NCBI GenBank assembly: GCA_965207445.1 | Contig: CBDBLX010000002.1 | Location: 1,687,849-1,751,848, forward strand | DNA from: Nitrosopumilus sp. | GTDB taxonomy: Archaea > Thermoproteota > Nitrososphaeria > Nitrososphaerales > Nitrosopumilaceae | Reading direction: 5' to 3' | DNA: 64,000 nt | Shown: in pieces, positions 59,246 through 64,000 of the stretch | How positions within the stretch are numbered: the first letter of the stretch is position 1 | How the letters are laid out: each line of letters starts with the position of its first letter | Made by a program: the position numbers and the translations under genes | Notes under the pieces: generated by a model | The model's input: the letters and a program-made list of their open reading frames with translations, nothing else | Told to the model about the DNA's origin: nothing | Database searches by the model: none

Positions 59246-60064
59246 ATGGGCACAAAAGACAAGTTTGAAATATTTGACACGAATCTTCAGCAATTGAATT
59301 CGTTGATAGAAAAAAACTCCTTTGTAAACTGTTATAGAACATGCACCGACTTGACAAGATATTCTGCAATGTCAAACTATACAGATGGATTGATAATATC
59401 AGAAATTTTAGAGGAGGTTTTTTCGCAGATACACAGGGTATTTACTGAGCATTCGATCCCAGATGACGAAAAACACATTATTGAATCTGAATTAAAAAAT
59501 GGAATTGATAAAATAAAGGGTTCTTACAAGGACGAAGATAAGAACTCACTTTATGATGGACTTAAAAAGATAAGAAATGATGCAACTCATTTTCAATTGA
59601 AATGCGGAAATAACTTTCCACACAAACAAAAGATCAGGAGACAGATTGGCGACCTTGTAATGATCATTCCAAGTAAGATGTGGGAGGACGACAAGAAAAT
59701 AGAAGAAGATATGCAACATGCCATATTGATAAAACATTTGGAAAATACGGGGGTAAACGATCCTAGTATCCATCTAAACGATACCGACAAAATTATTCGC
59801 GCTTTGTTAGAATATGTTGCGCTATGGGAAGAAAAGCATGAGGAACTCGAAGAAAAATATGAGGAACTTAAAGATCGTTACAACCGCATGACGATACAAG
59901 ATATGGACAGACAGAGTAAGGAAGCCATACAAGATCTTGAAGATATCTTCGGAATCGATTTTGACGACATCTTTGGTCCATATGAGGTGGAAGGTATGTT
60001 GAGCGACTATTCTGATGATCAATCATCCATGGAGTGGGTACGTTCTGTCCGAAGCGGTACATGA
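59246..60064 (+). CDS. Hypothetical protein; C-terminal half is a putative antitoxin
   Basis: Acidic C-terminus ending SMEWVRSVR directly before a PIN gene. Confidence 0.5.
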   Translation: MGTKDKFEIFDTNLQQLNSLIEKNSFVNCYRTCTDLTRYSAMSNYTDGLIISEILEEVFSQIHRVFTEHSIPDDEKHIIESELKNGIDKIKGSYKDEDKNSLYDGLKKIRNDATHFQLKCGNNFPHKQKIRRQIGDLVMIIPSKMWEDDKKIEEDMQHAILIKHLENTGVNDPSIHLNDTDKIIRALLEYVALWEEKHEELEEKYEELKDRYNRMTIQDMDRQSKEAIQDLEDIFGIDFDDIFGPYEVEGMLSDYSDDQSSMEWVRSVRSGT

Positions 60065-60696
60065 AAATTTGGTCTACTATGACACCAATGTGTGGGTGGC
60101 GTGGATGTTGTGTCCTGACGACAAATTCTATAAAAGCTCCAAAAAACTGATAGATGATGTTACAAGTGGCAAGAAAGTGGCAATAGTTTCCTACATAGTC
60201 ATACTAGAAACGATTCACGTCTTGCGAGAAAAGATGACAAAAGGCCACAAGTTTGAGACAGACTATGACACATATCATGCTCAAATTGAACACAGAATAA
60301 GAGAAGACACAAAAAAAATATGCGTCAAATTCACACTCTTGCTAGTCGAAGACAAGTAATCTTAGTAAAACCAAATATTGGTTTGGCTGAACATCACGTA
60401 CGAGTTTTGCGTGAACTGGTACGACGTTTTGGTCCCATCAAAACGTTCAGTCGATGTTCATCCTGTGGCGAGAAATTATCTTCTGAAAGTCTGATCAAAA
60501 TTTGCCCCAAATGCAAGGCGGGCATCATTCCGGCCAAATTAGAATATAGAGGGCTCGGCCATGCAGATCTGGAACATGCACTCCTTGCTAGACGCTACAA
60601 CGTGAAAACGTTCTACAGCAGTGATCGCGCATTTAAGCAGTTTAATGACGATAGGACTTTCAGAGGAATGTATTTTAAAACAATATTAAGTTGTCT
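60015..60696 (+). pseudogene. PIN-domain (VapC-like) nuclease with a Zn-ribbon insert, split at an A8 tract
   Basis: YDTNV...LETIHVL / CSSC...CPKC...DLEH...YSSDRAF; A9 at 60311-60318 would join the frames. Confidence 0.7.
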
Positions 60697-60854
60697 TGTA
60701 AGTAGTTCCGCCTTGAGTGTACGCCTAGATATGATCATAGGAATAATCGTCAATGTAAGTAGTTCCGCCTTGAGTGTACGCCTAGATATAATCATATTTA
60801 ATATGAAGCGTATGATGAGTTTAGCTTTTATGCCCACTTGGAGAGAAAAGAAAA

Positions 60855-61988
60855 TTGGCTACTAGTGGCGTAGATCCTCATATATCCGTGTGCGGAGTGG
60901 AAATGAAGGTGTGTGGGTCCAATCATGATCCTCGTACAAAGATCAAAACTAGGCTCAAAAATGGTAAAAAACTTCGTGTAATACATAAACTTGATGAGGA
61001 ACAGGTACGGTGGATAGTTCAGCAAAAGCACAATGATGAGATGAGTGACGCCCAGATTGCAAAATTAGTGGGTGTATCTGCACGATGGGTTAGAAAATTG
61101 TTCTTACGATATGGTCATTTACAGCCAAAAGATATCACATATCCTCCAAAGATGGGACGTCCTTCTAATGGATTACCAGGCCGTCGAGAACATTCTGCAG
61201 TGATATCTTGTTGCAAGCAGAACAGACGTATGGCAGTCAGACTCGAGACTATAATAGAAGAAGAAATCGGAATCCATATTTCTCACAATATCATATATAA
61301 GATATTGAAAGATGAGGAGTTAGTAGAAAACCAACCAAAAAAAGCAAAGCAGCGAAAGTGGGTTAGATATGAGAGAAGATTCTCAAATTCTTTATGGCAT
61401 ACGGATTTTAAGCAGATTTACGATGGTAGATGGTTTGTGTCCTATCAGGACGATGCATCTAGGATGATTATGGGCTTTGGAGTGTATAATGAACCTACAA
61501 GTGTTCATGCAATAAAGGTGCTTGAGGGCGCCATCAAGAAATACGGTAAACCTGCCCAAATACTAACGGATCATGGATCTCAGTTCTATGCAAATGAGAA
61601 AAAGAACTCTGAGCGCGGTGTAGCAGTATTTGAGAACAAGTTAGTCGAGCTTGGTATCAAACAAGTCATGGCACGTATAAAACACCCTCAAACCAATGGT
61701 AAATTAGAACGATTCCACTCTGAGATTGAACAACATCTAAAATCATTTGAAGAAGAGTCTGCATGTAATACAGTTCGTGGTTCCAAACCCGGCGACCATG
61801 TGGGGAATCCATTCCATACTAGGGGTATAACAGACCCAATAACAAGACTCGTCAACTGGTACAATAATCTCCCACATATGTCACTAAAAGACGGTAAAGA
61901 AACGCCTATAGAAGCCTATAAACGCAAACAAGCACCAAAAGACATAACAGCAAAAGAAATGGAGAGTCATGCATATGTCAAATCATAA
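60855..61988 (+). CDS. IS481-family transposase
   Basis: HTH, LWHTDFK, DDASR, TDHGSQF, HPQTNGKLERFH. Confidence 0.92.
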   Translation: MATSGVDPHISVCGVEMKVCGSNHDPRTKIKTRLKNGKKLRVIHKLDEEQVRWIVQQKHNDEMSDAQIAKLVGVSARWVRKLFLRYGHLQPKDITYPPKMGRPSNGLPGRREHSAVISCCKQNRRMAVRLETIIEEEIGIHISHNIIYKILKDEELVENQPKKAKQRKWVRYERRFSNSLWHTDFKQIYDGRWFVSYQDDASRMIMGFGVYNEPTSVHAIKVLEGAIKKYGKPAQILTDHGSQFYANEKKNSERGVAVFENKLVELGIKQVMARIKHPQTNGKLERFHSEIEQHLKSFEEESACNTVRGSKPGDHVGNPFHTRGITDPITRLVNWYNNLPHMSLKDGKETPIEAYKRKQAPKDITAKEMESHAYVKS

Positions 61989-62004
61989 GTGGAACTAACC
62001 ATAT

Positions 62005-63231
62005 GTGGCACGAAAAACACAACAGAGCAGAAATTCAGATGGTATAGATCGTGATTCGCACAAGCAAAATGCAAACAAACAGATTAGGGGTAGAAAAAAT
62101 GACCATATGGATAGTCATAGCGTAAGCAAGGTGAAAAAAACAACCACAAAAACATCGGTAAAATATGATAATGCTCAAAAATATTTTGTTGGTATTGATC
62201 TTCACAAAAAATTCATGCAAGTGGCAATTATGGATCCTAAAGGTAATGTTCTTCAAAATAAACGAATTGAGTGCAATCATATTGATATTGTAAAAGAATT
62301 TTCTGAGTTTCCGCCCAATGCAAAATACGTGTTGGAATCTTCTTCAGTATGGTATGGCATGTATAGATTTCTCACAGAAAAATTGCATTTGGATGTGATG
62401 TTATCAAATCCACTTGCAACAAAACGAATAGCTGAATCAAAAAAGAAGACAGATAAAGTAGATGCTCGTATATTGGCAGATCTGCTAAGGGGTGGATATA
62501 TTGCAGGATGTTATGTTCCAGAGGAAAAGGATGTGCATAATAGACAATTGGTCAGGTATAGAAGTACAGTAGTAAAGTCTAGAGTAAAGTCCAAAAATAG
62601 TGTTCATGCAATATTGTTACAAAGTGGAATCAAGATCAAAGGGATTCCATTTTCTGCTGAACATATACAAAATTTACGCAAGCTTAATGACTGGAGGATA
62701 GACAAACATATCAAAACAATTGCATTTTTAAATGATGATGTTCGTGATTGTGATGATAAAATATCCAATGCAGTATCAAAAAACGAACATGCTTCACTTT
62801 TGACTACAATGCCTGGAATCGGTCCTGTTACTGCGCTTACATTATCATCTGAAATTGGTGATATCTCAAGATTTCGTGATATGGGCAGTCTTGTTGCTTA
62901 TTTTGGACTAGCTCCATCTGTGAGGAATTCTGCCAGTACAGTTCACCATGGTGCCATAACGAAAATGGGAAATTCCATGGTTCGACAGTTGCTCACAGAA
63001 TGTGTGTTGTCTCATGTGCAGTTTGCAAAGAATAATAATCGACAGACTCCAATAAGTGTATTTTATGAAAGATTAAAGGAGAAAAGAGGCGTCTCAAAAG
63101 CACAGGTTGCCGCTGCTGCCAAGATGCTCAAAATTGTATTTTGGATGCTAACAAAGAATATAGATTTTTGGACATGTATAGAGATGGGTAAAAAGAGTAC
63201 ACATCGTAACCCCAAGAAAAAAAATGAATAG
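62005..63231 (+). CDS. IS110-family DEDD recombinase (start possibly ATG at 62107)
   Basis: VGIDLHK, LESS, KTDKVDARILA, PGIG, GLAPSVRNSA. Confidence 0.95.
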   Translation: MARKTQQSRNSDGIDRDSHKQNANKQIRGRKNDHMDSHSVSKVKKTTTKTSVKYDNAQKYFVGIDLHKKFMQVAIMDPKGNVLQNKRIECNHIDIVKEFSEFPPNAKYVLESSSVWYGMYRFLTEKLHLDVMLSNPLATKRIAESKKKTDKVDARILADLLRGGYIAGCYVPEEKDVHNRQLVRYRSTVVKSRVKSKNSVHAILLQSGIKIKGIPFSAEHIQNLRKLNDWRIDKHIKTIAFLNDDVRDCDDKISNAVSKNEHASLLTTMPGIGPVTALTLSSEIGDISRFRDMGSLVAYFGLAPSVRNSASTVHHGAITKMGNSMVRQLLTECVLSHVQFAKNNNRQTPISVFYERLKEKRGVSKAQVAAAAKMLKIVFWMLTKNIDFWTCIEMGKKSTHRNPKKKNE

Positions 63232-63246
63232 ATGTGAAAAATTATG

Positions 63247-63365
63247 GTTAGGGATTTGTGCGTTGTAAGTGTGAGATTTAATGCTCGGGGAACTAACTGC
63301 ATGGTGCCCCTAACGAATGGATGAAGCATGGTATTGAGATTTAATGCTCGTATAGATACATATCC
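63247..63365 (+). ncRNA. Predicted bridge RNA/seekRNA with target-binding and donor-binding loops
   Basis: Two modules share GAGATTTAATGCTC; flanked by TGTAAGT/GGAACTA (target) and ATGGT/ATAGATA (donor). Confidence 0.8.
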
Positions 63366-63689
63366 GAACCATCCTCCGGAAAAACACCACCCTAGCGTAT
63401 GCTGCGCACTTTAGTACGAAAAGTGAAGAATCGCTTATAAGGATCCCACATAGATACTTACAGGATAGCACAATTTTAAAACAATATATTCACAGTGACG
63501 CTTTATAGTACACGCTCAGACCGGCCCCAAATTTGTGTTCATGGTTATGTGCCGTTCATGTACTTTGTCTGTGACTTCAATTAACGCGAGTGTATAGAGA
63601 CCAGTCAGATATACTTTCTTGCAATAAGAAAGTGTGCAAGCGCACGTGAGTTCAATTCCCTTCTCACATCAAGAATATCATGTTAGTCC

Positions 63690-63770
63690 GTAACCGTTCA
63701 ATTTCCGTGCCTGCACCAGATGTTAGACGGTGAATCTATGCCTAAATTTGAGGAGGGGTTGAACGGTTAC
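63690..63770. mobile_element. MITE family A copy with 9-bp TSD
   Basis: TIRs; TGTTAGTCC on both sides. Confidence 0.9.
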
Positions 63771-64000
63771 TGTTAGTCCATGCACAACATATTTCATATG
63801 CAAAATGCTAGGTTTTCCTCATTTGTAATAAAAATGGATAAGGGATATTGTAAGTGCCCCGATTCGCTTTCTGCCGTCTAAAGGTATCCAGGCCCCCGCT
63901 TACAGCGCCACTACCATTGTCACCATCATCACTCTTCTTCCCGAACCGATCTGTCCCATATTTGAAATAAAACCTGCCAACAGACATGTTGCACCGCATG

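Follow-up and report, generated by a model that had tools for sequence, protein, structure and literature searches.

How does one mobile element come to lie inside the very end of another, and what directs it there? This question is raised by a 64,000-nucleotide stretch of DNA (the window) from Nitrosopumilus sp. (GenBank assembly GCA_965207445.1, contig CBDBLX010000002.1, forward-strand positions 1,687,849 to 1,751,848), an organism known from metagenome-type assemblies only, in which an insertion sequence (IS) of the IS110 family interrupts one of the terminal inverted repeats of an IS481-like element. Our sequence comparisons make it very likely that the IS110 element uses an RNA encoded at its 3' end, of the kind termed bridge RNA or seekRNA, to insert into the conserved core of the IS481 inverted repeats. 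An earlier note on this DNA had proposed that the element is programmed against IS481 ends, and this proposal is borne out by an encoded target loop that complements both strands of GGAACTA^CTTACA (the caret marks the insertion point) and by a second copy and three remnants at IS481-type sequence. The location in IS481 ends of this 13-mer and of both full copies of the IS110 element is no coincidence.

Position of the IS110 element in the IS481 repeat

The IS110-family element, which has an IS1111-like layout, is 1,459 bp long and occupies positions 61998..63456 on the plus strand, with boundaries set by a 99% identical copy elsewhere in the genome and by comparison with uninterrupted IS481 ends. 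It begins with ACCATATGTGG at 61998 and ends with CCCACATAGATA at 63456, and the sequence from 63457 onward reads CTTACAGGATAGCACA. Excision of 61998-63456 in silico leaves GTGGAACTACTTACA, exactly as the earlier note had described for a precise insertion into the IS481 inverted repeat. Removal of the element restores an ordinary right repeat, given that the uninterrupted right ends of the other five IS481 copies, as that note had predicted, all read GTGGAAnTACTTACAGGATAnCACA, with the 13-mer exact in three and carrying one mismatch in two. The insertion separates a left target half-site, GGAACTA (61991..61997, plus strand), whose final TA is the probable core and which matches a guide segment at 63290-63296, from a right half-site, CTTACA, that begins the 16-bp tip cut off from the IS481 right repeat (63457..63472, plus strand). 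Because TA is present at both junctions, the boundary is ambiguous, and 61996-63454 would be an equivalent assignment. No target-site duplication accompanies the IS110 insertion, in that only the TA is shared when the junctions are compared with uninterrupted sites. The insertion point lies 9 bp past the stop codon of the IS481 transposase gene and 16 bp inside the right tip.

The IS481-like element itself spans 60687..63472 (plus strand) and consists of 1,327 bp of its own sequence with the 1,459-bp IS110 element inside. Its tips are set by a 15-bp target-site duplication, ATTTTAAAACAATAT, found on the left at 60672..60686 and as the same 15-mer on the right at 63473..63487. Six copies are present in the genome at 98-100% identity, and alignment of their ends showed that direct repeats of 14-15 bp border five of them. 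The true tips therefore read TAAGTTGTCT-TGTAAG... on the left (that is, TAAGTTGTCT-TGTAAGTAGTTCCGC...) and ...CTTACA-GGATAGCACA on the right (...GTGGAACTACTTACA-GGATAGCACA). The TGT...ACA termini that the earlier note took excision to restore are thus not the ends of the element: the duplications fix the tips 10 bp further out, which places the IS110 element 16 bp inside the right one. The inverted repeats are imperfect, with TAAGTTGTCTTGTAAGTAGTTCCGC on one side against the reverse complement of GTGGAACTACTTACAGGATAGCACA on the other. The motif that the note had assigned to the left end, TGTAAGTAGTTCC, is present there, though not as a single copy; a 57-bp tandem duplication in the left end, seen in five of the six IS481 copies, gives it two positions, 60697 and 60754. 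Both occurrences are free IS110 target sites on the minus strand, one in the outer left inverted repeat (60697..60709), a type of site that is filled in copy B described below, and the other, recovered by the 13-mer search, in the inner repeat displaced by 57 bp (60754..60766). The DDE transposase gene (60855..61988, plus strand) is intact, with a maximal open reading frame (ORF) of 377 aa in the ORF list and a match to the Pfam rve domain (9e-13). Its top NCBIfam family is IS481 (NF033577) at 152.5 bits, under the cut-off of 224, with ISNCY as the runner-up at 75.9. An end-to-end alignment of this reading frame was obtained for five of the six copies; in the sixth, c6, the frame is split.

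Across the 2.6-Mb genome, the 13-mer target (GGAACTACTTACA) occurs exactly 10 times, all in IS481 ends and all unoccupied; a further seven sites differ from it by one mismatch, five of them in IS481 ends. In total, 17 IS481-end target sites are carried by the six IS copies, of which two are occupied. The view of the earlier note that such a target is both multi-copy and selectively cheap is reasonable in light of these 17 sites and of an insertion that falls 9 bp past the transposase stop. A genome search with the IS110 element identified eight places, comprising two full copies (A, in the window, and B), two relatives of full length that are 66% identical (C and D) and four fragments. Copy B (C2:1283715-1285174) is 99% identical to copy A, from which it differs by 14 substitutions and one indel, and it lies in the left repeat of c6, between TAAGTTGTCTTGTAAG and TAGTTCCGCC. 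Copies A and B have both entered this 13-mer, facing the same way with respect to the asymmetric target and opposite ways with respect to the IS481 body; since they occupy different repeats in the same target-relative orientation, they represent independent events. Three degraded right-end remnants (C2:601104, C2:1572308 and C2:~350135) are each followed by CTTACA and an IS481-type tip, and the relic at C2:1572308 retains a degraded guide RNA. The earlier note had asked whether copies exist outside IS481 ends: no full copy was found elsewhere in the genome, and C and D, which are located elsewhere, carry different guides.

Additional sequence data are in line with these locations. Contigs of a sponge metagenome obtained in a separate study (X5) include an IS481 copy that lies in another flank and has an uninterrupted right repeat, as well as pieces of the IS110 element at 98-99% identity, one of which extends 6 bases from the right end into CTTACA. 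The contigs of the sequencing runs contain further IS481 copies whose right repeats are uninterrupted. No excised site or circle junction was found in the contigs of four sequencing runs, three of which share one sample, possibly the assembly's own source.

In the IS481 copy c6 (C2:1285175-1286410), the host of copy B, the left repeat is single, the 57-bp doubling being absent, and the transposase gene is split. This copy lacks a target duplication and has a GC-rich right flank, features that may point to a rearrangement or to foreign DNA at this place.

Predicted guide RNA and its covariation among relatives

The recombinase gene of the IS110 element (62107..63231, plus strand) encodes 374 aa from its ATG, within a maximal ORF that starts at 62005. 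The protein has the two expected domains of a DEDD transposase, PF01548 (DEDD, RuvC-like, N-terminal, 7.4e-24) and PF02371 (Transposase_20, C-terminal, 9.4e-23), and it scores 241.2 bits against the NCBIfam model "IS110 family RNA-guided transposase" (NF033542; cut-off 140). Its matches in the PDB are the ISCro4 and IS621 transposases. The alignment includes the serine of the GL-P----S motif, and GLAPSVRNSAS is aligned to the catalytic serine motif GLTPRRYESGS of the ISCro4 recombinase. A C-terminal G(L)-P----S(G/A) motif with a catalytic serine has been defined for such proteins (PMC11187229). Residues S271, S275 and A276 are invariant across six relatives. The nearest annotated relatives, at 33-35% identity, are haloarchaeal proteins labeled "IS110 family," among them the ISHvo9 family.

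Of the two non-coding ends, the left measures 109 nt (61998-62106) and the right 225 nt (63232-63456), so that the longer one is downstream of the transposase gene. The left sub-terminal inverted repeat, TATGTGG (62002..62008, plus strand), is the reverse complement of the right one, CCACATA (63446..63452, plus strand), and each stands 4 nt from its end. This 7-bp repeat is inside the range of 7-17 bp given for IS1111 elements (Durrant et al., PMC11208160); compared with the usual 11-13 bp with 7+3-nt extensions (Siddiquee et al., PMC11187229), it is both shorter and of greater symmetry. Based on its sequence, the element is a member of the IS110 family with an IS1111-like layout, an assignment made by layout and not by a recombinase tree. 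The left sub-terminal sequence ACCATATGTG is kept among relatives. Just 5' of the recombinase start codon, AATGCAAACAAACAGATTAGGG (window 62070-62095) is near-invariant among elements otherwise 60-70% identical, which suggests a functional site such as a promoter or a ribosome-binding or protein-binding site.

The predicted bridge/seekRNA lies at 63247..63365 (plus strand), downstream of the recombinase gene, and was folded with RNAalifold from the sequences of 20 relatives; an Rfam scan of 60500-64000, with E values up to 1, matched no family. Its stems are P1 (63247-53/63308-14), P2 (63259-62/63298-301) and P3 (63319-23/63361-65), all on the plus strand. Two identical hairpins, GAGATTTAATGCTC, lie at 63273 and 63336, and each is bordered by short guide segments. 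In the target module, the right target guide (63263..63272; TTGTAAGTGT) contains UUGUAAGUG at 63263-71, and the reverse complement of the guide, ACACTTACAA, compares with the target sequence TACTTACA(G/A). It is followed by hairpin 1 (63273..63286), which has the form GAG-AUUUAAUG-CUC, is identical to hairpin 2 and has a middle pair that is G-C in 9 of 20 sequences and A-U in 8 of 20. The left target guide, GGGGAACUAAC (63287..63297; GGGGAACTAAC), consists of GGAACTA (63290-96) plus AC, the dinucleotide with which the left end of the element opens. Together, the target guides match both strands of GGAACTA^CTTACA over 7 nt and 8-9 nt, with an overlap of TA. In the donor module, the right donor guide loop AAGCAUGGUAU (63324..63334; AAGCATGGTAT) contains AUGGU, which pairs with ACCAT of the left end; hairpin 2 (63335..63350) is supported by RNAalifold and by pair counts; and the left donor guide loop UAUAGAUACA (63351..63360; TATAGATACA) contains AUAGAUA, which equals the right-end terminus ATAGATA. 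The donor guides thus measure 7-8 nt (AUAGAUA[C]) and 5 nt (AUGGU). The order of the guides, with the top-strand complement UUGUAAGUG 5' of the bottom-strand GGAACUA, is that of the IS1111-group seekRNA. After the left donor guide comes a C, identical to the first base of the right target, and by analogy this C and the AC after the left target guide would resemble the "handshake" pairing of IS621 (PMC11208158).

If these segments are guides, they should change along with the DNA that they are predicted to pair with, and the relatives of the element provide this comparison. Relatives of the recombinase were found in Nitrosopumilaceae/Thaumarchaeota assemblies only, and the right-end DNA was matched in 20 of 401 family genomes including the source genome, with none besides the source above 83% identity. 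A metagenome scan by recombinase alignment returned 80 loci, three of them close relatives (54-73%) and the rest at about 22-36%, from which only L033 was used. We extracted 32 distinct RNA regions with ends from the relatives' loci and compared each guide with the flanks of its own element and of other elements, scoring a match at 6 or more contiguous bases. The right guide matched the right flank in 12 of 26 cognate insertion events, compared with 8 of 624 non-cognate pairs, and the left guide matched the left flank in 10 of 17 cognate events, compared with 15 of 268 non-cognate pairs. Loci L005, L135 and L141, in which the first hairpin could not be parsed, were left out of both tests, and L025, L127 and L128, whose target loop was truncated or wrongly parsed, were excluded from the right-guide test; L118 and L119, where the flank match falls at an offset outside the scored range, were counted as poor. 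The guides also change with the ends of the elements themselves. In C and D, the left end reads ATCAT instead of ACCAT, the right donor guide AUGAU instead of AUGGU and the left-guide extension AU instead of AC, and relatives with the right end ATGGATA instead of ATAGATA have AUGGAUA in the left donor loop.

The structure was likewise recovered from comparison. In the alignment of 20 RNA sequences, RNAalifold returned all three stems and the second hairpin. Once the first hairpin was included as well, standard pairing accounted for 97.6% of the cells and compensatory changes were present at 9 of 23 pairs, values that no shuffle out of 500 attained; slid controls scored 29-47%. Several elements carry two hairpins of the same sequence although this sequence varies from one element to another, a pattern suggesting that one protein surface reads both RNA modules.

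Programming of this kind appears to be particular to the element described here. When the IS481 transposase was compared by tblastn with 42 loci of relatives, a single neighbor was found (L122, 30% identity), and there the IS110 element lies about 40 bp beyond an IS481-like end and not in the repeat. On this comparison, IS-end targeting is specific to the element described here. Its kin in other genera have the left guide GGGAACUAAC in common and right guides for CTG... sites; one speculative reading, which we think rather unlikely, is that the specificity for IS481 ends arose by swapping the right guide only.

Several observations weigh against the RNA-guided interpretation. Single-sequence minimum-free-energy folds of the right end do not surpass those of shuffles (z = 0.22 and -0.87), so the predicted structure derives from the comparative data, and the guide RNA is known from DNA, with no RNA among the listed sequencing runs. 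The right donor guide pairs over 5 bases only (ACCAT), in a register that is ambiguous relative to the TA core, and the right target guide sets a G opposite the core T, a wobble pair. With regard to the sites themselves, insertions fill only 2 of the 17 IS481-end sites, and a degraded left-end fragment at C2:944017 stands at TTTTTGAACTA with no IS481 sequence adjoining. In 14 of the 26 related events, including C and D, the right flank matches the guide over fewer than 6 bases, which indicates that recognition is not always two-sided; in C and D, the left half-sites alone fit the guides. A 2026 preprint reports "half-match" insertion for IS621, and by analogy such insertion may explain the poorly matched right flanks.

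We also noted several features of the sites around these elements. A repeat containing ...cttatGATTATATACTAtgataatttt..., present in about 15 copies (e.g., C2:233984 and C2:166529), agrees at 11 of 12 bases with the full target predicted for C and D; it was considered as their actual site and set aside, given that none of C, D and the related element L007 is inserted there. A second repeat family, ending in ...CACATTGCGAACTACTGACAT, is found at window ~26786 and in about 25 other places (e.g., C2:1714634). To judge from its two inner variants, the family may represent both ends of another IS or of a miniature inverted-repeat transposable element. Its end is 2 bases off the IS110 target and similar to the GGAACTA^CTG... 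sites into which related IS110 elements of other genera have inserted; in this genome, all of these ends are free. The locus at C2:~350135-350450 (minus strand, outside the window) is an array of three 104-bp tandem units, each ending in CCACATAGATA, the right-end terminus of the IS110 element. The last unit is followed by CTTACAAGACAACTTA, which is the IS481 left tip, and neither a gene nor a left end of an IS110 element is found within 3.3 kb. In another Nitrosopumilaceae genome (G039), a related IS110 element (L026 / L116) has the same 29-bp sequence, ttattcgttttgaaatttcaggtataatg, on both sides, which is unexpected because the family makes no target duplication.

Proposed mechanism, rival explanations and consequences for IS481

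In the mechanism that we propose, the recombinase would bind a bridge/seekRNA produced from the region 3' of its gene, and this RNA would direct insertion, by conservative site-specific recombination, into GGAAC-TA-CTTACA, the core of the IS481-like inverted repeats. The RNA would consist of two modules of like build, each running from a top-strand guide through a hairpin to a bottom-strand guide. The target module would read the IS481 repeat and the donor module the abutted ends of an IS110 circle, the two sharing the core TA. The putative circle intermediate would have the right-left junction ...CATAGATA-ACCATATG..., and splitting of the repeat 16 bp from the tip would presumably disable that end of the IS481 element.

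Could the recombinase instead recognize the IS481 repeat through protein-DNA contacts alone, with the matching segments 3' of the gene being coincidental or remnants of the target that were carried along? The unremarkable single-sequence fold and the lack of RNA among the listed runs would fit such a view. We nevertheless consider it highly improbable, given that the guides change together with the flanks at the cognate and non-cognate frequencies reported above (12/26 versus 8/624 and 10/17 versus 15/268) and together with the element's own ends, that the stems contain compensatory changes, and that the family is RNA-guided by experiment (PMC11187229, PMC11208160). An equally slim chance attaches to a single fortuitous insertion that later spread by homologous recombination, gene conversion or composite transposition, with no site preference at all. 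The near-identical IS481 copies are indeed substrates for recombination, and the missing target duplications of c6 suggest rearrangement. However, copies A and B are opposite with respect to the IS481 body and identical with respect to the asymmetric target, an arrangement that conversion cannot yield; in addition, three more remnants adjoin left-type tips at unrelated loci, and the right-end piece in the X5 sponge metagenome also enters CTTACA.

Guided targeting leaves the fate of the host element as a separate matter. It is plausible, by analogy, that the insertion immobilizes the host IS481, as the earlier note had supposed, because the repeat is split 16 bp from the tip. Alternatively, the composite may be mobile as a whole, or the inner left repeat may substitute for the split one, so that the IS110 element hitch-hikes on an IS481 that still moves; we regard this as possible but doubtful. 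In its favor are the intact IS481 transposase gene in the window, the 16-bp tip that persists at the outer end and the second copy of the repeat core in the left end. Opposing it, no composite is present at more than one locus and the two composites differ in the end that was hit, the window composite retains its original 15-bp duplication, the inner left repeat comes without the 10-bp tip, and transposons hit by IS4321/IS5075 are described as deficient in further mobilization, which is an assertion of the authors and not an assay (PMC5034289). That neither interrupted IS481 copy is found at a second locus carries little weight, because there are only two interrupted copies in all.

The target sequence is shared well beyond this genome. 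IS481 relatives, at 71% identity or less, were found in 37 of 400 other family genomes, a tally that includes G258 (flagged as unpublished and used in that tally alone). At 7 of 11 fetched loci, GGAACTACTTAC is retained in the ends of these relatives, where no more than 2 positions differ from the 13-mer and the left end is often doubled. Given that GGAACTACTTAC is kept in relatives only about 70% identical, in other genera, the guide is aimed at a conserved core of the lineage's repeats. We considered the doubled left repeat as a recent decoy against the IS110 element and rejected this idea, since the same doubling occurs in the approximately 70%-identical relatives in other genomes and is thus old. 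At three loci, IS481 is reduced to a 16-bp tip beside an IS110 right-end remnant, and the single hit copy with a decayed transposase gene, c6, is also the one without duplications. One speculative extension, which we think rather unlikely, is that the IS110 element acts as an RNA-guided hyperparasite eroding the IS481 lineage, with a guide aimed at an apparently unchangeable GGAACTACTTAC; the accompanying scenario, in which the IS481 body is lost after an IS110 hit, is just as tentative.

Three further features lie near the IS481 element in the window. An ORF at 60015-60359 contains the N-terminal half of a PIN domain, and a second ORF at 60320-60865 overlaps it and enters the IS481 left end, the IS481 insertion replacing approximately its last three codons. 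A short repeat ending in ...GGGGTTGAACGGTTAC is found at window 63700-63780 and in the flanks of L005 and element D, and it recurs beside several IS relics.

Comparison with known systems

The closest parallel to this nested arrangement is that of IS4321 and IS5075, which lie inside the inverted repeats at the termini of transposons from the Tn21 family (PMC5034289), a precedent that the earlier note had named correctly. In a literature search with incomplete coverage, we found nothing on IS110-family targeting of IS481 ends or on IS110 elements in Thaumarchaeota. As with IS4321/IS5075, an IS with a DEDD recombinase enters the terminal inverted repeat of a different mobile element at a single position and in a single orientation, either end of the host element is hit, and split repeats are left behind; a long non-coding region 3' of the transposase gene and sub-terminal inverted repeats are also common to both. 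In contrast to those enterobacterial elements with their Tn3-family target, the element described here has an archaeal host (Nitrosopumilaceae) and an IS481-like target. It also differs in its 374-aa recombinase, whose nearest relatives are haloarchaeal, and in a repeat of only 7 bp with 4-nt extensions.

The predicted guide RNA is similar to those of the IS1111-type seekRNA elements ISEc11, ISPa11, ISKpn4 and ISPst6 (PMC11187229) in its location downstream of the gene for the transposase, in the placement of the top-strand complement 5' of the bottom-strand complement and in matches that overlap in the target. The published targets of that group are a short linear site, attC sites and repetitive extragenic palindromic (REP) sequences, whereas here the target is the end of another IS, and the published recombinases are 330-350 aa long compared with 374 aa here (PMC11187229). 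The identical hairpins in the target and donor modules are a feature that we did not find for IS1111-type seekRNAs in the available portion of that paper. Like the bridge RNA of IS621 (PMC11208160, PMC11208158), the predicted RNA has a target loop and a donor loop, each with one guide per strand that overlap on a core dinucleotide, and extra guide bases that would match the partner DNA after strand exchange, the "handshake" described for IS621 (PMC11208158). The IS621 RNA, however, is encoded at the left end, has its left guide 5' of its right guide and uses the core CT, whereas the RNA considered here has its place in the right end, runs its guides in the opposite order and has TA as its probable core. 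Bases of the handshake type follow the bottom-strand guides here (AC for the left target guide, C for the left donor guide) and are on the right-guide side in IS621.

In summary, this locus reveals no new kind of system. It offers a natural bridge/seekRNA whose programming is legible directly from the genome, with the guide, free targets, occupied targets and differently programmed relatives together in one organism and family. The approximately 20 related archaeal guide RNAs with varied targets are a resource for studying natural half-site reprogramming and the frequency of insertions matched in one half. The locus also extends the habit of IS4321 and IS5075 to the archaea and to a pair in which one IS is inserted into another.

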